Below are positions 1 to 25,196 of a stretch of 64,000 nt of DNA, in pieces. This DNA comes from an uncultured Methylomirabilota bacterium (lineage in GTDB: Bacteria > Methylomirabilota > Methylomirabilia > Methylomirabilales > 2-02-FULL-66-22). The notes beneath the pieces are model-generated. The model was not told the origin of the DNA and searched no databases. It was given only the letters and a program-made list of their open reading frames with translations. A program made the position numbers and the translations under genes. Location of the stretch: assembly GCA_963705305.1 (NCBI GenBank), contig OY970067.1, positions 2,560,001 through 2,624,000 of the forward strand, given 5' to 3'. Position 1 is the first letter of the stretch. Each line of letters begins with the position of its first letter.

Positions 1-589
1 CCACCTGGCCGTTGCGCAACCGCCGGAGCAGGAGGTAGCCCAGGGCCGCCAGGATGAGGAGATCGGACACGTAGAGGTCGGGCGTGCTGATCTGGAAGAA
101 GGCGTCAACGCTCGCCAGGTGGGTGACGAGGGACGGGATCGGCTCCAGGAAGAACCGGAGGTGACGGAGGAAGATGACCAGGAAGGTCCAGTGGAAGACA
201 AGGGCGGCCAGCCACAAGAGCTTGTCCTCGCCGTAGGTCAGCCGGACGCCCTCCCGGAGCTGCACCCGGATATTGCGGAAGAGCGATCGGAACAGCCCGA
301 TCTCCAAAGCCATGCGGGCAGCCACGCCGGCGCCGGAATACGGGCTCTCCAGCCAGCCGGCCTTGATCCAGGGAAGGGATTTCTGCTGTCCACAGGTGGT
401 GGGGATGCGAAAGGGGACCGGCGCGCGGGACCAGACCAGGACCCGGTAGGTCAGGCCCGCCAGCAGGGTCAGGAGGGCCGCGTACGGCACGACGATCCCG
501 AAGAGGACACGCAGCCCCTCCGTCTGCCCGCTCAGAAAGGCCAGGGCCGCCAGAAGGACTACCGCGACAAGTGCCGTCAGTGCGCGCAC
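1..589 (-). CDS. dsrM: DsrM, cytochrome b subunit of DsrMKJOP (3' end runs off the window)
   Basis: Not in the ORF track; manual translation from GTG at 589 gives MRALTALVAVVLL...WSRAPVPFRIPTTCGQQKSLPWIK..., the conserved DsrM motif. Directly downstream of dsrT. Confidence 0.9.
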   Translation of the reverse strand, partial: MRALTALVAVVLLAALAFLSGQTEGLRVLFGIVVPYAALLTLLAGLTYRVLVWSRAPVPFRIPTTCGQQKSLPWIKAGWLESPYSGAGVAARMALEIGLFRSLFRNIRVQLREGVRLTYGEDKLLWLAALVFHWTFLVIFLRHLRFFLEPIPSLVTHLASVDAFFQISTPDLYVSDLLILAALGYLLLRRLRNGQV

Positions 590-16535: not shown

Positions 16536-17045
16536 TCAATCCACTGCGGCGGGCTCTTCCAGTTCTTTCCCGGCCTCGCGGAGCAGGAGAACGTGGGCGC
16601 CCGCCTGCTCGAGGTGGGCCCGGCCCAGGCGGGTTTCGACCAGGGTGAAGCACACCTCCTCCTCCAGGAACATGTGATGGAGGAACTCCTTCACCAGGCC
16701 GATCCCCTTTTCCCGCACCAGAGGCGCGATCTCATCGGTGATGGGGCAGCGCGTGAGGGCCTTGAACTCGGCCAGCCGGGCCTCCAGGTCGCGGTGCTCC
16801 CGCGCCAGCTCGGCAGCGACGCCGGCTCCGTCCGGGCCGGTCTCCGCCAGCGGGGCGAAGAGCCAACGCTCCTCCGACCCGAGATACTCTCGGAGCTGGA
16901 TATCGAGGTAGGTGGCCACGTTCTTGGCCACGATGGCCCACTGGGAGGTCTGCATCAACAGGGCCTTGTCCAGGGCCACCAGGGCCTTCCGGATGATGTT
17001 ATGGTCCCTCTGGATGATCTCGGTTGCGGTCACCGTGCGCTGCAT
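16536..17045 (-). CDS. Hemerythrin/HHE cation-binding domain protein
   Basis: RDH, EERWLF, REH, HMFLEEEVCF. Confidence 0.75.
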   Translation of the reverse strand: MQRTVTATEIIQRDHNIIRKALVALDKALLMQTSQWAIVAKNVATYLDIQLREYLGSEERWLFAPLAETGPDGAGVAAELAREHRDLEARLAEFKALTRCPITDEIAPLVREKGIGLVKEFLHHMFLEEEVCFTLVETRLGRAHLEQAGAHVLLLREAGKELEEPAAVD

Positions 17046-17077
17046 GCCCCCTCCTGACCCGGTCTCAGCCGGCTGCG

Positions 17078-19591
17078 TCAGGCCACCAGTCCCAGCTTTC
17101 CCTCGTAGATGAACGTCCGGGCGTTCTCGGCGATCACCTCGGGATCAACCTGCAGCCGGGCCACACCGGTCTCCATGGCGGCCGTGGCCACCGCCTTGGC
17201 GACGGCCACCGGCACGCGGAAGTCCAGCATGTAGGGCAGGATGTACTCCGGCTTCAGCTCCTTCGCGCTCACCAGGTTCGCGATGGCGTGGGCCGCCGCG
17301 ATCTTCATGGCGTCGTTGATCTCGCGGGCGCGGACATCCAGGGCGCCGCGGAAGATGCCCGGGAAGCCCAGGGAGTTGTTCACCTGGTTCTCGAAGTCCG
17401 ACCGGCCGGTGGCCACCACGGCGGCCCCGCCGGCCTTGGCCTCCTCCGGAAAGATCTCGGGGACGGGGTTCGCCATGGCGAAAATGATGGGGTCCTTCGC
17501 CATCGTCCGCACCATCTCCGGGGTCACCGCCTTGGCCACCGAGAGCCCGACGAACACGTCGGCCCCCACCAGGGCGTCGGCCAGCGCGCCGCTGCGGCGC
17601 TCCTTGTTCGTGATGCAGGCCATCTCGGCCTTGACCGGGTTCATCCCCTTGGGCCGCCCTTCGACCACGATCCCCTGGCTGTCGCACAGGATCAGGTCCT
17701 TCACGCCGACCTTCAGGAACAGCCGGGCCACGGCGATGGAGGCGGCCCCGGCCCCGTTCAGGACCACGCGGGCGTCGGCCACGCTCCGCCCGGTGATCTT
17801 CAGGGCGTTCAGGAGCGCTGCCAGCACGATGACCGCCGTCCCGTGCTGGTCGTCGTGCATGACCGGGATATCCAGCTCTTTCTTGAGCCGGTCCTCGACC
17901 GCGAAGCAGCGCGGTGCGGCAATGTCCTCCAGATTGATGCCGCCGAAGACCGGGGAGATGGCCTTGACCACCGCCACGATCTCCTCGACGTCCTGGGTGG
18001 CGATGCAGACCGGGAAGGCCTCCACGCCGCCGAAGGTCTTGAAGAGCACGGCCTTGCCCTCCATGACGGGCATGGCGGCCCGGGCGCCAATGTTGCCGAG
18101 ACCAAGGACCGCGCTCCCGTCCGAGACCACCGCCACCAGGTTCCCCTTGGCGGTGAGGTCGTAGACCTTGGCCGGGTCCTTCAGGATGGCCTCGGCGGGC
18201 AGCGTCGAGCCGGGGGGCAGGTACAGCAGGCTCAAGATGTTGGCGTCCCGGATGGGCACTTTGCTCACCACCTGGAGCTTCCCGCGGAAGCGGCGATGCA
18301 GGTCCAGGGCTTCCTCTTTTTGCGTGAGCGGCTTTCCGGCGGCTCGGGGCTCGACCGGGAAGCTGCCCTCGTAGATAAAGCGGCGCGTCCGCTCGGCAAT
18401 GCGCTCGGGGTCCATCTCTTTGCGGGCTTCTCCCGTGGCCATGGCAACCCGGGCCACCGCCGCGGCCAAGGTCGGCGCCACGCGAAAGTCGAACACCGCC
18501 GGCACGATCCGCTCGGCGGAGCATTCCGACTGGGGCACCAGCCCCGCCAGAGCGTCCGCGGCCGCCAGCAGCATCTGGGTGGTGACGTTGCGGGCCTGGA
18601 CGTCCAGCAGCCCGCGCAGCACCCCCGGGAAGACCAGCGCGATATCGAGCTGGTTCGGGTAGTCGCAGAGCGCCGTGGCCACGATCTTGGCGCCGGCCCG
18701 CTTGGCCTCAGCCGGCGAGATCTCCGGTGTGGGGACGGCGAGGGCGAAGAGGATGGGATCGGCCGCCATGCGCGACACCATCTCGGGCGTGAGAATCTGG
18801 GGGGCCGAGAGGCCGATGAAGACGTCCGCGCCTATGATCGCCTTGGCCAGCGGTCCATCCACGTTCTCCGGGTTGGTCTGGCGGGCGATCTCGGCCTTGA
18901 CCCAGTTCATATCGCTCGGCCGGTAGGTGTGGACGGCCCCCGCCCGGTCACAGACGACAATGTGGCGAGCCCCTGCCGCGAGCAGGAGTCGCACCACACC
19001 GACGCCAGCCGCACCCGCCCCGCAGACGACGATTCGCGCGTCCTCCAATCGCTTGCCCACCTGGGGCAGGGCATTCTTCAGACCGGCCAGGACCATGATG
19101 CCGGCCCCATGAGCATGATTGTGAAAGACGGGAACGTTCACGGCGCGCTGGAGGTGGTCCTCCAAGGAGAAACAGCGAGGAGAGACGATGTCCTCCAGGC
19201 AGAAGGCGCCGAAGGTCGGAGCCAGCATGGTGACGGCCTGGATCATGTCGTAGAGGGACTCGGCCTTCAGACACATGGGCAGGGCATCGATGCCGGCGAA
19301 CGTCTTGAAAATGACCGACTTTCCCTCCATGGCAGGGAGCGCGGCCTCGGGTCCGGCCTGCCCCAGGCCGAAGAGGGCCGAGCCATCGGTGATCAGCCCC
19401 ACGGTGTTGCCCCGGCAGGTGTACTCGAACGAGTTCTTGGGATCCCGGAAGATCTCCATGCAGGGCTCGGCGACTCCGGGTGTGTACACCAGACTGAGTG
19501 TGCCCCGGTCCTTGACAGGCACCTTGCTCTCCACCCCAATCAGGCCACGGTGTCGACGGCGGTACTCCAGCGCATCATTTTCTACGGTCAT
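17078..19591 (-). CDS. Tandem-duplicated NAD(P)-dependent malic enzyme (two ME units fused)
   Basis: 837 aa; two consecutive ~410-aa malic enzyme units, each with MEGK, LEDI, GAGAA and ADVFxGLS motifs. Confidence 0.92.
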   Translation of the reverse strand: MTVENDALEYRRRHRGLIGVESKVPVKDRGTLSLVYTPGVAEPCMEIFRDPKNSFEYTCRGNTVGLITDGSALFGLGQAGPEAALPAMEGKSVIFKTFAGIDALPMCLKAESLYDMIQAVTMLAPTFGAFCLEDIVSPRCFSLEDHLQRAVNVPVFHNHAHGAGIMVLAGLKNALPQVGKRLEDARIVVCGAGAAGVGVVRLLLAAGARHIVVCDRAGAVHTYRPSDMNWVKAEIARQTNPENVDGPLAKAIIGADVFIGLSAPQILTPEMVSRMAADPILFALAVPTPEISPAEAKRAGAKIVATALCDYPNQLDIALVFPGVLRGLLDVQARNVTTQMLLAAADALAGLVPQSECSAERIVPAVFDFRVAPTLAAAVARVAMATGEARKEMDPERIAERTRRFIYEGSFPVEPRAAGKPLTQKEEALDLHRRFRGKLQVVSKVPIRDANILSLLYLPPGSTLPAEAILKDPAKVYDLTAKGNLVAVVSDGSAVLGLGNIGARAAMPVMEGKAVLFKTFGGVEAFPVCIATQDVEEIVAVVKAISPVFGGINLEDIAAPRCFAVEDRLKKELDIPVMHDDQHGTAVIVLAALLNALKITGRSVADARVVLNGAGAASIAVARLFLKVGVKDLILCDSQGIVVEGRPKGMNPVKAEMACITNKERRSGALADALVGADVFVGLSVAKAVTPEMVRTMAKDPIIFAMANPVPEIFPEEAKAGGAAVVATGRSDFENQVNNSLGFPGIFRGALDVRAREINDAMKIAAAHAIANLVSAKELKPEYILPYMLDFRVPVAVAKAVATAAMETGVARLQVDPEVIAENARTFIYEGKLGLVA

Positions 19592-20117
19592 CTTCGGCTC
19601 CTCCTGAGGAGGACGGCTCTTCCTGTGTCCTCCGCGATTCCATGGATCTCGGCTCCGCGGTGTATGGGCGAGACGGTCCCGCCCATTCTCCTGCCCGCGG
19701 TGACCACTGTCGGCCTTCTCCTATATGAAAAAAAGCAATCTCCCATCCTGCAGTATCTTATTCCCAGGTGAGAGAGGTGGGATACGCCAAACACGGCCAG
19801 TGGGAAATCGAACACACACGCATCCCCGATTGAAAATACCCGCAATTCCGATACCAAGGGGTTCGATGCTCCTCCAGAGATTTCGAGAGGGGGCGAAAGG
19901 GCCATCTGCAACCTTCATCTATCGAGACTTGCGAGCCCAGAAGGGAATCCGCCCCCGCGCGCGGGCGGGTTCGATCTGGATGAATTCTCCCGGGAGGACC
20001 CGCTGGCTGAGGCAAATTGGTCCAAATTTGGGCCACAACGCCTCGCAGAGCGCGGCCGGCCCCTGGCGATGCCCTGCAGATTCTGCTGACGACGGAGGGA
20101 GGAGAGGGAAGCGGACG

Positions 20118-20768: not shown

Positions 20769-22133
20769 TCAGTCCTCGCCCAGCTTGATATGGTACCGGC
20801 GGATCTTGCGGTAGAGGGTCCGGCGGTCGATCCCCAGGATGGAGGCGGCGCGGATCTGATGCCCCTTGGTGCGCCGGAGAATCATGGCGATGTAATCCCT
20901 CTCCAGATCCTCCAGCGTGGCCTCTTTGGCCAGGGCGCGCTCCAGCGGATCGGTGCCGCCGGCCAGGTGGGGGGGGAGGTCGCCCGGCTGGATGGCGGGG
21001 TCGCGTCCCAGGGTCACCGCCCGCTCGATGATATTCTCCAGCTCGCGGACGTTGCCGGGCCAGCCGTAGCTCAGGAGGATGGCCATGGCCTCCTTGGAGA
21101 TCTCCCGGATATTGGGGTTGGATTCCTGCGAGAACTTCTGCATGAAGTGATTGGCCAGCAGCGGGATGTCCTCCTGCCGATCCTTGAGATCCGGCAGGGT
21201 GATGGGCACGACATTCAGCCGGTAGTACAGATCCTCCCGGAAGCTCCCCTCCTCCACGGCCTTCTTCAGGTCCCGGTTGGTGGCGGCGATGACCCGGACG
21301 TCGATCTTGATGGTCCGGGTCCCCCCCACCCGCTCGATCTCCCGCTCCTGGAGGGCGCGGAGGATCTTCGCCTGGAGGTCCAGGCGCATGGAGCCCACCT
21401 CGTCCAGGAACAGGCTCCCCCCGGTGGCGAGCTCGAACTTCCCCACCTTGGTGGCGATGGCCCCGGTGAAGGCCCCCTTCTCATGGCCGAACAGCTCCGA
21501 CTCCAGGAGCTCGGAGGGGATGGCGGCGCAGTTGACGGCGACGAAGGCCTTGGAAACCCGCGGGCTGTTGTAGTGGACGGCCTTGGCCACCAGCTCCTTT
21601 CCCGTCCCGCTCTTGCCGTAGACCATCACGGTGCTGCGGCTGCCCGCCACCTGCTCGATCAGGCCGAACACCTCCTGCATGGCGCGGCTCTTCCCGATCA
21701 GGTTCTCGAAATGGTAGCGCGTGCGGAGCTCCTGCCGCAGGCTGCTCACCTCGTGCCGCAGCCGCCGCTCCTCCAGGGCCTTGTCGATGGTCAGGAGCAT
21801 CTCGTCGATCTTGAAGGGCTTGTTGATGTAGTCGTATGCTCCTTCCTTCACGGCCTGCACCGCCTGGTCGATGGACCCGAAGGCCGTCATGATGATGACA
21901 ACGGTGTCCGGATTCAGCTCCTTGATGGCCTTCAGCGCGTCCATGCCGCTCATCCCCGGCATGCGGACGTCCGTCACGACCAGATCCATGGGCTCTTTCT
22001 CGAGCACGGCCAGGGCTTCCGCCCCGTCCCCGCAGGCCGCGACCTGATAGCCGCTCTTGTCCAGGACCTTGGCCAGCAGGCCCCGCATCTGCTCTTCGTC
22101 GTCCACAACCAGGATGCGCGCTTTCGTCGTCAT
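20769..22133 (-). CDS. Sigma-54-dependent response regulator (NtrC/AtoC family)
   Basis: Start MTTKARILVVDDEE; GKSGTGKE, GAFTGA, WPGNVREL, HTH GIDRRTLYRK. Confidence 0.95.
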   Translation of the reverse strand: MTTKARILVVDDEEQMRGLLAKVLDKSGYQVAACGDGAEALAVLEKEPMDLVVTDVRMPGMSGMDALKAIKELNPDTVVIIMTAFGSIDQAVQAVKEGAYDYINKPFKIDEMLLTIDKALEERRLRHEVSSLRQELRTRYHFENLIGKSRAMQEVFGLIEQVAGSRSTVMVYGKSGTGKELVAKAVHYNSPRVSKAFVAVNCAAIPSELLESELFGHEKGAFTGAIATKVGKFELATGGSLFLDEVGSMRLDLQAKILRALQEREIERVGGTRTIKIDVRVIAATNRDLKKAVEEGSFREDLYYRLNVVPITLPDLKDRQEDIPLLANHFMQKFSQESNPNIREISKEAMAILLSYGWPGNVRELENIIERAVTLGRDPAIQPGDLPPHLAGGTDPLERALAKEATLEDLERDYIAMILRRTKGHQIRAASILGIDRRTLYRKIRRYHIKLGED

Positions 22134-23959
22134 GCGATCTGTCCCTCGGCAGGCAGCCAAATAGTGAAGGTGGTCCCCCGACCGACCTGGCTGGACACCT
22201 CGACGCTCCCGTGGTGATCCTCCACGATGCGCCGGCTGATGGCCAGCCCCAGGCCGGTTCCCTTGCCGACCCCCTTGGTGCTGAAGAACGGGTCGAAGAT
22301 CCGCGGCAGGTGCTCGGCGGGAATGCCGGTGCCGGTATCGGCGATACTGATCTCCACGCCTCGCGGCGCGGGGCGGCCTCCGCGTCGGGGTCGATCTCCC
22401 GGGGGCGTGGCGCGGGTCGCCAGGGCCAGGCTGCCGCCGTCCGGCATGGCATGCCAGGCGTTGATGATGATGTTGAGAAACGCCTGCTCCAGCTGGTTGG
22501 TGTCGCCGATGATGGCGGGGAGATCGGACTGGAAATCGGTGCGGACCGCGATGTGGCCTTTGGCGATCTGGTGCTCGGTGAGGCCGAGGACCTCGTGAAG
22601 CAGGTCGTTCAACTTGACCGGCTCCAGCTCCATCCGCGCCGGGCGCGCGAAGTTGAGCAGCTGCTGGATCAGCTTGGTGATTCGGTCCGTCTGGGCAATG
22701 ATGATCTCCAGTTCCTGCGGGCGAGGCCGCTCGGCTCCCCACTCCATCATCAGGTACTCGGCGGAGCCGGAGATCACGTTCAACGGGGTGCCGATCTGGT
22801 GGGCGATCCCCGCCGCCAACTGCCCAACCACGGCCAGCTTCTCCGCCTGCTGCACCTCCTGGGCCAGCGATACGCGATCGGTCACGTCCTCGATGGCCAG
22901 CACGGCGCCGTCCGTCTCGCCTGCGGGACTCCGTAGGGCGCTGCCGCGGATGTTCAGGACCACCCGTCCGCGATGGAGTGTCTCGTGGTCGAAGTAACGC
23001 AGGGTGAACTCCCGAGTCTCGCCCCGCAAGAGCCGGTCGAGCTCCGCCCGGAGGCCCTCCCGCTCCAGGGCGGGGAAGGCCTCAAACAGGCCGCGGCCCA
23101 TCACGGCGGGCTCGGCGATGCCGTACCGCTCGGTCATGGCCCGATTCCAGGTTCGGATGCGGCAGTGGCGGTCCACACCGATGATGCCATCGGTGATGCC
23201 CTGGATCACGTTGTAGGCGTTGGCGCTCTCCTGGACCAGCCGCTGGCGCGCCTCTTCCAGGTGGACGGCGAGGAGGTTGAATTCTCTGGCCAGCCGCGCG
23301 ACCTCGTCCTGTCCCGGCACCTCGACTTCGGCGGGCACCTGGCCCCGGCCGAGGGTGGCCACGCGCTCCATCAGTCTTGCCAGCGGCGCCGTGACCGTGC
23401 GCCGGATGGTGAGGGTGATGAGCACGATCAGGGCTACGGAGATCACCGCCAGCAGGCCCAAAAAGTAGTTCCGCTCGCGGGCGAGACTGTCCTGGATCTC
23501 CTCGAGACTCACCGACACCTTGAGGCCGCCCAGGACGGCGCCATCGGCCGTCAAGGCCACCAGCTGGCTGCGAAGCGGGACGCCCCCCAGCTGCTCCACC
23601 ACGCCGGCCCCCCGGGGGACGCCGCTCACGGTGGTCAGCTCCCCGCGGCTGACGGGTGGGGCGTCGGCACTCAGTCCCCAGCGCAGGATGGGGCGGCCGG
23701 ACGCGTCGTAAACGACCAGGCCGAACCGGCCGGGCGCCAGGCTGGAGCGCTCGACGATGGTCAGGAAATCGGCCGCATTCTGACGGCGGAGGGCATCGGC
23801 GACGGGGATCGCCATGGTGTTGGCGATGCGCTCGGCCTCGCCCCAGATCTCCTGCTGCTGGAGGTGCTGAACGCGCTTCAAAGTGATAACCGAGAAGACG
23901 GCCAGGACCAGGAGGATCGGGATCAGGACCCAGAGCGTGACCTTGGCGCCGAGGCTCAT
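22130..23959 (-). CDS. Sensor histidine kinase (TM, HAMP, PAS, HisKA, HATPase)
   Basis: Start MSLGAKVTLW; AHQIGTPL H-box; DTGTGI and [15 protein letters not shown]. Confidence 0.92.
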   Translation of the reverse strand: MSLGAKVTLWVLIPILLVLAVFSVITLKRVQHLQQQEIWGEAERIANTMAIPVADALRRQNAADFLTIVERSSLAPGRFGLVVYDASGRPILRWGLSADAPPVSRGELTTVSGVPRGAGVVEQLGGVPLRSQLVALTADGAVLGGLKVSVSLEEIQDSLARERNYFLGLLAVISVALIVLITLTIRRTVTAPLARLMERVATLGRGQVPAEVEVPGQDEVARLAREFNLLAVHLEEARQRLVQESANAYNVIQGITDGIIGVDRHCRIRTWNRAMTERYGIAEPAVMGRGLFEAFPALEREGLRAELDRLLRGETREFTLRYFDHETLHRGRVVLNIRGSALRSPAGETDGAVLAIEDVTDRVSLAQEVQQAEKLAVVGQLAAGIAHQIGTPLNVISGSAEYLMMEWGAERPRPQELEIIIAQTDRITKLIQQLLNFARPARMELEPVKLNDLLHEVLGLTEHQIAKGHIAVRTDFQSDLPAIIGDTNQLEQAFLNIIINAWHAMPDGGSLALATRATPPGDRPRRGGRPAPRGVEISIADTGTGIPAEHLPRIFDPFFSTKGVGKGTGLGLAISRRIVEDHHGSVEVSSQVGRGTTFTIWLPAEGQIA

Positions 23960-24742
23960 GCCTGCCCTCCGGGGTCGGGGAGACCGAAGGCGCGGCAGGC
24001 GTTCCTGGCCGTGAGCTGTCCGACACGCTCCGGGCTCCATCCCCACGCGGCGGCCAAGGCCTCCGCGACGAGACGGAGAAAGGCGGGCTCGTTCCGCCGG
24101 CCGCGATGCGGGACCGGCGGCAGGTAGGGCGCGTCGGTTTCTATGAGGATCCGGTCTTTGGGCGCCTCTGCGGCCAACTGCCGCAGACCGTTGGCGGACG
24201 GGTAGGTGAGGGGGCCGGCCAGCGACGTGTAATAGCCCCGGGCCCACGCCTCGTGCGCGACGGCATGGTCTCCCTGGAAGCAATGCAGGATCACGGCGGG
24301 CAGCCCCGTTGCTTCCTGGCCGAGGAGCCGCAGGTTGTCCACGTGGGCGTCGCGCGTGTGGACCACCAGGGGGCGGCCCAGCTCCTTGGCCAGGCGGACC
24401 TGGGCCCGGAAGGCGGCTGCTTGCCTCTCGCGGGGCGCCAGGTCCCGGAAATAGTCCAAACCCGTCTCGCCGATGCCGACGACGCGGGGATGCGCCGCCA
24501 AGGTCTCCAGGACCTGCATGGCGTCCGGCTCGAACGTCCTGCGCGTGGTGCGGGTGGATGCCGACGCAGGCGAGAATCCCATCCTCCTGTTCGGCCAGCG
24601 AAACGGCCTGCCGGCTGGAGGCCAGATCATATCCGACGGCGATCACGCAAGAGACGCCGGCCGCCCTGGCCCGCGCCAGGACTTCCGGTCTGTCCCGGTC
24701 GAAGTCGGACATATAGGGGTGAGAATGTGAGTCAAAAAACAC
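23956..24742 (-). CDS. tatD: TatD family hydrolase; +1 frameshift near 24533, probably a sequence error
   Basis: FDSHSH and GIHPH in one frame; IGETGLDY, HTRDAH, LHCF and ETDAPYL in the next; removing one base joins them. Confidence 0.88.
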
Positions 24743-25196
24743 CGCAGGACCCCCCTTCATCTCGGAGCACTATAGCCGATGTGTCCCACCGTCGCAACCG
24801 GCGGTGCAGGCGTGTCTCAAATTGGACATGATGCCCCATTCCCGGGCGGATGCCGGCCGAAGGATGCTGCGGGAATCTGGTGCAGAAGGGCGGCTGGTTT
24901 CGGAGGGAAATGCGGAGTGCAACGGGAGACGGCAAGACCGTGTCCGCGTCGGTTCGGGTTCGCGCTGGCGGGTGAGACCTGCTATACTCCCGCCGCACAC
25001 GCACTCGGACGGAGGCGCCCATGGGCGGTTGCCGCGGCTGTCGGTCGTGCCCGTGCCCACGGATCGGGCGCCTGATCGGAACGCTGGGCGGCCTGGCCTG
25101 AGGCCGATGGCGGGCAGGCCGGCGGCGCCCGGCGGGTCCGCTCCTGATCAATGGGCGGGCGAGCAGCACTCCGTCCGAAACCCCTGAAACCGGAGG

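Follow-up and report, generated by a model that had tools for sequence, protein, structure and literature searches.

A tandem malic enzyme from a Methylomirabilota bacterium with two reciprocally degenerate units and, probably, one composite active site

Two malic enzyme (ME) units of the small prokaryotic type are joined in a single polypeptide of 837 amino acids (P0001), encoded on the minus strand of a 64,000-nucleotide (nt) stretch of contig OY970067.1 (positions 2,560,001 to 2,624,000; assembly GCA_963705305.1) from an uncultured Methylomirabilota bacterium. This whole stretch is referred to here as the window, and positions are counted from its first letter. The complete canonical set of ME residues is present within neither unit and is complete only across both. 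Judging from the sequence and from predicted structures, we consider it likely that the protein is a single-chain pseudo-heterodimer with one working composite active site. An initial annotation, made from the DNA letters, had proposed such a site, in which unit 1 provides the catalytic tyrosine (Tyr) and unit 2 everything else, and this proposal gained support from the reciprocal motif pattern, from the crossed way in which arms and bodies are conserved, from the reduced relatives, and from two AlphaFold2 (AF2) models.

The proposal starts from the premise that Tyr is supplied in trans in small bacterial MEs, which is stated in excerpts of two published studies. According to one (Harding et al., PMC7902834), the catalytic Tyr of small prokaryotic MEs is donated by the swapped helix of the opposing monomer. 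According to the other (Chakrabarty et al. 2025, PMC11944484), the E. histolytica enzyme EhME is an entangled dimer with a composite active site, in which a 48-residue segment between the GK and GNF motifs threads the other protomer, and Tyr65' lies 2.8 Å from Lys120 of the other chain, with Lys120 and Asp193 belonging to the same monomer. Because the Tyr arm is swapped between ME subunits, a fused pair would hold a site A, made of the unit 1 arm and the unit 2 body, and a site B, made of the converse parts.

Two malic enzyme units in one reading frame

The Pfam families malic (PF00390; 149.4 bits, cut-off 23.1) and Malic_M (PF03949; 156.8 bits, cut-off 23.5) each matched P0001 in two stretches, one per unit. 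Unit 1 (residues 1 to about 412) and unit 2 (about 423 to 837) were 48% identical over 412 aligned columns (E 8e-133), with one gap, which directly follows the Tyr in the Tyr loop. Over their whole length, both halves matched small prokaryotic MEs of solved structure in phmmer searches (unit 2, E 1e-124 to 1e-86; unit 1, E 1e-108 to 1e-69), the best PDB match being the ME domain of MaeB for unit 2 (9kru, E 2.6e-125) and the minimal Phytoplasma ME for unit 1 (5cee, E 1.5e-108). Residues 1-390 of unit 1 matched positions 1-387 of the hidden Markov model (HMM) of the ME unit that is described below. PDB matches of large MEs had E values of 1e-23 or weaker, and the models for the large SfcA/eukaryote-type ME (NF010052; 197 bits, cut-off 326) and for malolactic enzyme (NF041582; 121.1 bits, cut-off 850) scored below their cut-offs. 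The protein had been set apart in the initial annotation from the known MaeB ME-PTA fusion, and this separation held, as the PTA family was absent among the seven Pfam matches of P0001 and the MaeB model NF009501 fell short of its cut-off (674.3 bits, cut-off 1178) and was matched over profile positions 6-427 of 764 only. The parts of the gene and the motifs of the two units are as follows.

17078..19591 (minus): tandem ME gene, 837 amino acids, stop codon included (open reading frame and Pfam)
19600..19605 (minus): ribosome-binding site AGGAGG, read from the sequence, 8 nt ahead of the ATG (19591)
18356..19591 (minus): unit 1, residues 1-412, degenerate ME unit retaining the Tyr arm (Pfam, unit alignment, HMM)
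18326..18355 (minus): linker, residues 413-422, between the units (dip in the predicted local distance difference test score, pLDDT; block 411-420 = 80)
17081..18325 (minus): unit 2, residues 423-837, catalytic body (Pfam, NCBIfam, PDB matches, HMM)
19406..19546 (minus): unit 1 swapped arm, residues 16-62, RG-L to R-GN (boundaries from the GK..GNF description excerpted from PMC11944484)
19469..19498 (minus): unit 1 Tyr loop LSLVYTPGVA (32-41), with the Tyr36 codon at 19484..19486
19103..19123 (minus): unit 1 HNHAHGA (157-163), in place of HDDQHGT, both Asp lost
19004..19021 (minus): unit 1 GAGAAG dinucleotide-binding motif (191-196), kept
18731..18739 (minus): unit 1 A-V-P (285-287), in place of A-N-P, substrate-site Asn lost
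18641..18676 (minus): unit 1 TALCDYPNQLDI (306-317; TALCD..NQLDI), in place of TGRSDFENQVNN
18203..18235 (minus): unit 2 drifted Tyr loop LSLLYLPPGST (453-463), one-residue insertion
18053..18064 (minus): unit 2 MEGK (510-513), catalytic Lys513
17924..17932 (minus): unit 2 L-E-D (554-556), metal ligands
17837..17857 (minus): unit 2 HDDQHGT (579-585)
17465..17473 (minus): unit 2 A-N-P (707-709)
17375..17410 (minus): unit 2 TGRSDFENQVNN (728-739)

All motif strings quoted in the initial annotation were found in the P0001 translation at the places it gave. Unit 1 retains Tyr36 within LSLVYTPGVA, together with Lys91, Glu133 and Asp134, and its HDDQHGT motif has been lost to HNHAHGA, both as originally described; the two Asp of this DD motif are replaced by Asn158 and His159, and the two Asn of the NN pair by Asp316 and Ile317. 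The first DD Asp corresponds to what we take to be the catalytic-triad Asp278 of human ME2, and the second to the metal-binding Asp279. A further loss, Asn to Val286 (FAMANP versus FALAVP), had been missed. The change from TGRSD to TALCD, which had also been counted as a loss, is present here but is peculiar to this copy, as the corresponding positions in unit 1 of 116 close relatives retain G in 68, R in 100 and S in 63, and the paralogue in the same genome reads ATGRSD. In unit 2, the whole body is present and the Tyr loop is non-canonical; the earlier description of this loop as distorted stands for the loop itself (YLPPGS, with the insertion) but not for its Tyr, which remains as Tyr457. 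The GxGxxG motif reads GAGAAG in unit 1 and GAGAAS (613-618) in unit 2.

Reciprocal motif loss throughout the family

Three word-indexed searches and one exhaustive search against 50%-identity representatives yielded 440 related proteins, of which 118 had one unit, 18 were two-unit fragments, 257 were full two-unit proteins, and 47 had a reduced unit 1. An HMM of the ME unit was built from 34 single-unit representatives, and 18 key columns were scored per unit, the 18 two-unit fragments being left unscored in the tally. Among 102 near-complete single-unit MEs, these columns were near-fixed (Y 98, K 100, E 101, D 98, DD 98 and 99, N 95, R 93, S 94, NN 96 and 96). Since the columns are near-fixed in single-unit MEs and the pattern recurs in hundreds of two-unit relatives, the complementary motif loss is not a product of chance. 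The tally for the N-terminal (N-) and C-terminal (C-) units was as follows.

N-unit Y[T/S]PGV loop: full 255/257; reduced 46/47
N-unit first DD Asp retained: full 5/257; reduced 0/47
N-unit second NN Asn retained: full 5/257; reduced 0/47
C-unit body: full, 10/10 key residues in 255/257; reduced, at least 9/10 in 46/47
C-unit canonical Tyr loop: full 2/257; reduced 0/47
C-unit own Tyr residue: full 232/257; reduced 2/47

The reciprocal degeneration described for P0001 was therefore found in homologues and proved to be family-wide across the 257 full two-unit proteins. The unit 1 loop read YTPGVA in 116/116 close relatives, and in unit 2 the catalytic Lys (256/257) and the DD Asps (257/257 and 256/257) were almost always conserved. 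The near-universal losses of unit 1 were the first Asp of the DD motif, a column occupied by N169, T37, S19, A16, H9 and D5 (n=257), and the second Asn of the NN motif (I111, S61, V28, T27, C13); the ANP Asn column held V104, L64, N38 and T23, with S also occurring, and the unit 1 Lys was replaced in 58/257. Other parts of unit 1 were kept, including the GxGxxG glycines (G1 257/257, G2 257/257, G3 254/257), the Glu (241/257) and the first metal Asp (234/257). In the reduced proteins, unit 1 consisted of HMM positions of about 9-135 followed by about 130-150 residues not recognised by the HMM. These relatives keep the arm-bearing part of unit 1 while their unit 2 has lost its own Tyr, which argues for a composite site. 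The count of the Tyr in 116 close C-units differed between the MAFFT (110/116) and HMM (106/116) alignments because of the one-residue insertion in the C-unit loop.

A unit tree was computed from 186 of 382 units with at least 300 match states, taking every sixth of P0002-P0120, and rooted at its midpoint. The full-length degenerate units fell in one clade (23/26, support 0.989), and the catalytic units of 15 mostly reduced-form or fragmentary proteins formed a separate clade (support 0.964); deeper branches were weak (support 0.0-0.7). Hundreds of sequence clusters have this layout, with source names that point to NC10/Methylomirabilis, Desulfobacteria, Nitrospinae, Nitrospirae, Chloroflexi, Armatimonadetes and further groups; the relatives bore the database names 'NADP-dependent malic enzyme' or 'malate dehydrogenase (oxaloacetate-decarboxylating)'. 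One stand-alone protein inside the degenerate unit 1 clade, P0147 (407 aa), has a YTPGV loop and a dead body, and is either a tandem-gene fragment or part of a form of this enzyme that is split over two genes. In P0366 (957 aa), P0202 (783 aa) and P0255 (905 aa), an ME is fused to RIIa, or to EF-hand and cyclic-nucleotide-binding domains, which suggests eukaryote-style regulated MEs among the metagenome matches.

Crossed conservation of arms and bodies

The GK..GNF segment was mapped to RG-L16..GN62 in unit 1 and RG-K437..GN484 in unit 2, and pairwise identity was compared between arms and bodies among the 116 close relatives. The arm was more conserved in unit 1 (0.711) than in unit 2 (0.599), being higher in unit 1 in 1389 of 1500 sampled pairs, and the body was less conserved in unit 1 (0.617) than in unit 2 (0.708), being lower in unit 1 in 1339/1500 pairs. 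This crossed pattern is what would be expected if site A is live and site B relaxed. Over whole units, mean pairwise identity was 0.623 for unit 1 and 0.689 for unit 2. The 16 unit 1 columns equivalent to the pocket had a mean conservation of 0.879, compared with 0.723 for all unit 1 columns, a value reached by 11 of 10000 random sets. Random decay of unit 1, which would have spoken against the initial annotation, is not what the full-length clade displays, in view of this pairwise identity, the pocket columns, and the retained GxGxxG motif.

Predicted structures

The AF2 model of P0001, computed from a 92-sequence alignment, had a pLDDT of 94.0 and a predicted template modelling score (pTM) of 0.92. 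Small MEs superposed on either unit of this model (Z 44-52, root-mean-square deviation 1.3-2.3), for example 5cee on residues 3-390 (Z 51.9) and 3nv9_A on residues 422-833 (Z 52.2). In 30 of 31 large-ME rows, the large, non-swapped MEs spanned the model from residues of about 21-25 to about 830-833 with about 336-385 aligned residues; the remaining row, 9myf_B, covered 1..425. Human ME2 (1gz3_A) aligned with Z 38.9 over 377 residues, chain 97-560 lying on model residues 22-830, and, by alignment offset in the model, Tyr36 would fall within about one residue of Tyr112 of human ME2. Because large MEs span both units with the aligned length of one monomer, the unit 1 arm and the unit 2 body would, so far as the model can be trusted, make up one eukaryote-type ME monomer.

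The reduced form P0271 was modelled from a 37-sequence alignment (pLDDT 91.1, pTM 0.91). Its unit 1 was predicted as an alpha/beta sub-domain followed by helices, with no Rossmann fold, and all 31/31 large-ME rows ran from model residues 25-30 to 710-728. We read this as the unit 1 arm being placed, in the predicted fold, in the unit 2 body, where eukaryotic MEs place the Tyr helix. Structure prediction, which the initial annotation had named as a check on its proposal, was consistent with it, both models packing the units within one chain.

Proposed arrangement and alternative explanations

Small prokaryotic MEs are obligate entangled dimers, in which an N-terminal arm with the catalytic Tyr reaches from each subunit into the active site of the other, and we propose that in P0001 the two partners have been fused into one chain. 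The live site A would arise by insertion of the unit 1 arm (residues of about 16-62, with Tyr36) into the unit 2 body, which would contribute Lys513, the metal ligands Glu555, Asp556 and Asp581, Asp580, Asn708, Arg730, Ser731, Asn738 and Asn739, as well as the NAD(P) fold. Site B, composed of the unit 2 arm and the unit 1 body, would be dead for malate decarboxylation, because unit 1 lacks both DD Asp, the ANP Asn and the NN pair, and because the Tyr loop of unit 2 has drifted. The crippled unit 1 would thus survive by lending its catalytic Tyr arm to the intact unit 2. We infer that Tyr36 acts in the unit 2 site, that the enzyme decarboxylates malate oxidatively, and that the units pair within one chain. 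The protein probably arose when an obligate homodimer was duplicated or fused and one of its two sites was subsequently lost; unit 1 may later have shrunk, in certain lineages, to an arm-bearing sub-domain.

Several observations weigh against this arrangement. Tyr457 is still present in unit 2, so that the sequence by itself is compatible with pairing between the unit 2s of two chains. The arm-plus-body reading of the models is based on where the alignments begin and end and on how many residues they cover, and AF2 is familiar with swapped ME homodimers, so that the packing may partly reflect likeness to solved structures. The relatives are non-independent samples, and the reduced forms are confined to a few clades. 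The tally of two-unit proteins also contains seven exceptions. In P0405, P0348, P0316 and P0114, the DD of unit 1 is kept and other pocket residues are lost. In P0122 (860 aa) and P0151 (727 aa), the catalytic-column Tyr is missing in both units; their 'catalytic' unit is further altered, and these proteins may be fully non-catalytic or put to other use. The metagenome protein P0134 (848 aa) displays the same complementation in the reverse order, with an intact body and no Tyr loop (SAAAG) in its N-unit and YTPGV with a dead body in its C-unit. P0134 represents one cluster of four member sequences, and we considered it as an independent family; this was rejected, as it has no close relative, its next matches are ordinary tandems at 35-38% identity, and it is a singleton.

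The presence of Tyr457 here and of the unit 2 Tyr in 232/257 full tandem relatives would fit a pairing of like with like, in which unit 2 dimerises with the unit 2 of a second chain, Tyr457 acts in trans, and the unit 1-unit 1 pair is a dead appendage; small MEs also form tetramers, according to the excerpt of PMC11944484. Such a pairing leaves unexplained the invariance of the Tyr loop of the dead unit, the most invariant segment (255/257), and is disfavoured by the unit 2 loop, which is canonical in 2/257 and lacks the Tyr in 25/257 full and 45/47 reduced proteins, and by both AF2 models, in which the units are packed within the chain (pTM 0.92 and 0.91). We regard it as highly improbable. 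We likewise give very little credence to the idea that both sites are catalytic, with the unit 1 pocket (Lys91, Glu133, Asp134, Asn158, His159 and Asp316) and Tyr457 serving another reaction or substrate. The dinucleotide fold of unit 1 is kept, conservation within this clade is high (Lys91 0.97, Glu133 0.96, Asp134 0.95, Asn158 0.98, His159 0.85), and the Glu, Asp and His may have remained able to bind a metal; yet the first DD Asp is replaced in 252/257 relatives and the unit 1 Lys in 58/257, the substitutes vary by sub-clade, and the reduced forms have no unit 1 pocket at all.

Another possibility, which extends the proposed arrangement rather than competing with it, is that site B (the unit 1 body with the Tyr457 arm) is a regulatory pocket that tunes site A by binding a ligand, for example NAD(P)(H), a metal and a dicarboxylate. 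We hold this to be possible but doubtful. It would agree with the conservation of the unit 1 pocket columns above the unit 1 average (0.879 versus 0.723), with the retention of the GxGxxG motif (257/257), the Glu (241/257) and the first metal Asp (234/257), and with the only slightly faster evolution of unit 1 relative to unit 2 (identity 0.623 versus 0.689). The unit 2 Tyr, moreover, is present in 232/257 proteins with a unit 1 body and 2/47 without one, and the two paralogues of the same genome have unit 2s identical in DNA but for one base and unit 1s that are about 75% identical. On the other side, the unit 1 body is missing in 47 reduced relatives whose catalytic unit is intact; the set of pocket columns includes fold-critical glycines, which inflates its conservation; and the correlation between Tyr and body rests on few clades. 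The replacements also differ between sub-clades (N, T, S, A or H for the first Asp; V, L, T or S for the ANP Asn; I, S, V, T or C for the second NN Asn), which argues against one conserved ligand. More speculative still, and in our estimation rather unlikely, is the view that unit 1 is an exchangeable sensor half, whose crippled pocket binds a dinucleotide, metal or acid and regulates a shared catalytic half. If this were true, the genome would encode two isozymes with the same unit 2, maintained by gene conversion, and different sensor units (ATALCD versus ATGRSD), with an MFS transporter as the neighbour of one, and a hemerythrin plus a two-component sigma-54 system as neighbours of the other, providing two regulatory inputs to one catalytic engine.

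Paralogues and genomic context

The 5.65-Mb single-contig genome contains four ME loci, namely two tandem genes and two single-unit MEs. The second tandem gene encodes 853 aa (L004:580-3141, minus strand, corresponding to G000:C1 about 1065834-1068395) and shares the following stretch with the gene in the window.

17094..18382 (minus): near-identical DNA (1 mismatch) shared with the second tandem ME gene

Beginning at the RFIYEG codons with which unit 1 closes, this near-identical tract of about 1290 nt extends to the FIYEGKL codons at the close of unit 2, whereas the unit 1 DNA of the two genes is 67-85% identical per 150-nt window and about 75% identical overall. The pattern resembles that of a recent gene conversion, or of a segmental copy, confined to the catalytic unit. 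An MFS transporter gene (444 aa, L003 1900..3234, minus strand) lies directly upstream of the second tandem gene. The two single-unit genes (L001 1120..2658, plus strand, 512 aa; L002 1174..2508, plus strand, 444 aa) encode a canonical YTPGV loop and catalytic body with N-terminal extensions of about 100-130 residues, which give the impression of ACT-type regulatory domains.

A full-length tandem frame of the same layout occurred in eight other genomes of the genus and in five of other families of the order, and 19 of the 31 genomes searched, its own included, had a match at E 1e-50 or better. The full-length open frames in other genomes of the genus and order argue that the tandem gene is not an accident of assembly.

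In the window, a gene for a hemerythrin-domain protein (16536..17045, minus strand; 169 aa; PF01814, E 4e-11) begins 32 nt beyond the stop codon of the ME gene, and, given this spacing and the shared strand, it is probably co-transcribed with the ME gene. Just upstream of the ME gene, at 20769..24760 (minus strand), lie an NtrC-type sigma-54 activator (receiver, Sigma54_activat and HTH_8) and a sensor kinase open reading frame, and a GG-N10-GC sigma-54-like site (TGGTATCGGAATTGC) was seen at 19842..19856 (minus strand), about 250 nt upstream of the ME start. A scan of the window for the sigma-54 motif gave 49 matches versus 60.7 expected, which is not above chance, so that this single match is not evidence by itself. 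An antisense open reading frame of 915 aa opposite the ME gene (17024..19771, plus strand), in a region of about 68% G+C, is one that we take for a shadow frame and not a gene.

Significance and comparison with known systems

MEs are enzymes of central metabolism. The tandem layout is widespread, yet we could not find a published description of it; a literature search for tandem, double or fused MEs, with subscription journals and preprint supplements outside its reach, returned none. Bacterial MEs are said to be understudied in the excerpt of PMC7902834. The layout would be a third multidomain form of ME, beside the minimal and ME-PTA forms, and would represent an evolutionary case of an obligate homodimer turned into an asymmetric single chain. 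It would also offer a natural experiment on the trans-Tyr mechanism, in which one site has been deleted and, in some lineages, nearly a whole subunit is gone except for its arm. A model that equates every ME unit with one catalytic site would arrive at too many sites.

The small prokaryotic MEs used for comparison were those of Ca. Phytoplasma AYWB (5cee), T. maritima (TM0542; 1vl6, 2hae), P. horikoshii (PH1275; 1ww8, 2dvm), S. pyogenes (2a9f) and E. histolytica (EhME; 3nv9). Each unit of the tandem protein resembles them in fold and length, and their entangled trans-Tyr arrangement is apparently reproduced within one chain. They are, however, homodimers of identical subunits of about 40 kDa with two equivalent sites, whereas the partners here are fused, 48% identical and reciprocally degenerate, and would have one site left. 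The MaeB ME-PTA proteins of B. bacteriovorus (6zng, 9kru) and E. coli (8jzo, 9krw) are likewise multidomain MEs of about 85 kDa with the database name 'NADP-dependent malic enzyme'; the best matches of unit 2 are MaeB ME domains, and in both cases an appended module could regulate an ME dimer. Unlike MaeB, the tandem protein has no PTA domain, and the module appended to it, on the N-terminal side, is another ME unit, in crippled form.

Beyond the MEs, heterodimeric ABC exporters build composite ATP sites from two homologous halves, one of the two sites being degenerate through complementary motif loss in the halves, and CFTR is the single-chain version of this design. The likeness to the tandem ME would be one of design logic only, as fold and chemistry are unrelated. 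Trypanosomatid deoxyhypusine synthase is one case of a prozyme, in which a dead paralogue is kept as a needed partner. The trypanosomatid AdoMetDC prozyme, another such kept paralogue, activates its enzyme by relief of autoinhibition, as an excerpt of PMC5201418 has it. Prozymes are separate polypeptides of eukaryotic parasites, whereas the tandem ME carries its dead partner in the same chain, with the proposed role of donating a catalytic residue. Plant mitochondrial NAD-ME alpha/beta heteromers also combine two diverged ME paralogues in one enzyme, but these paralogues are large, non-swapped and unfused, with a complete site in each subunit.

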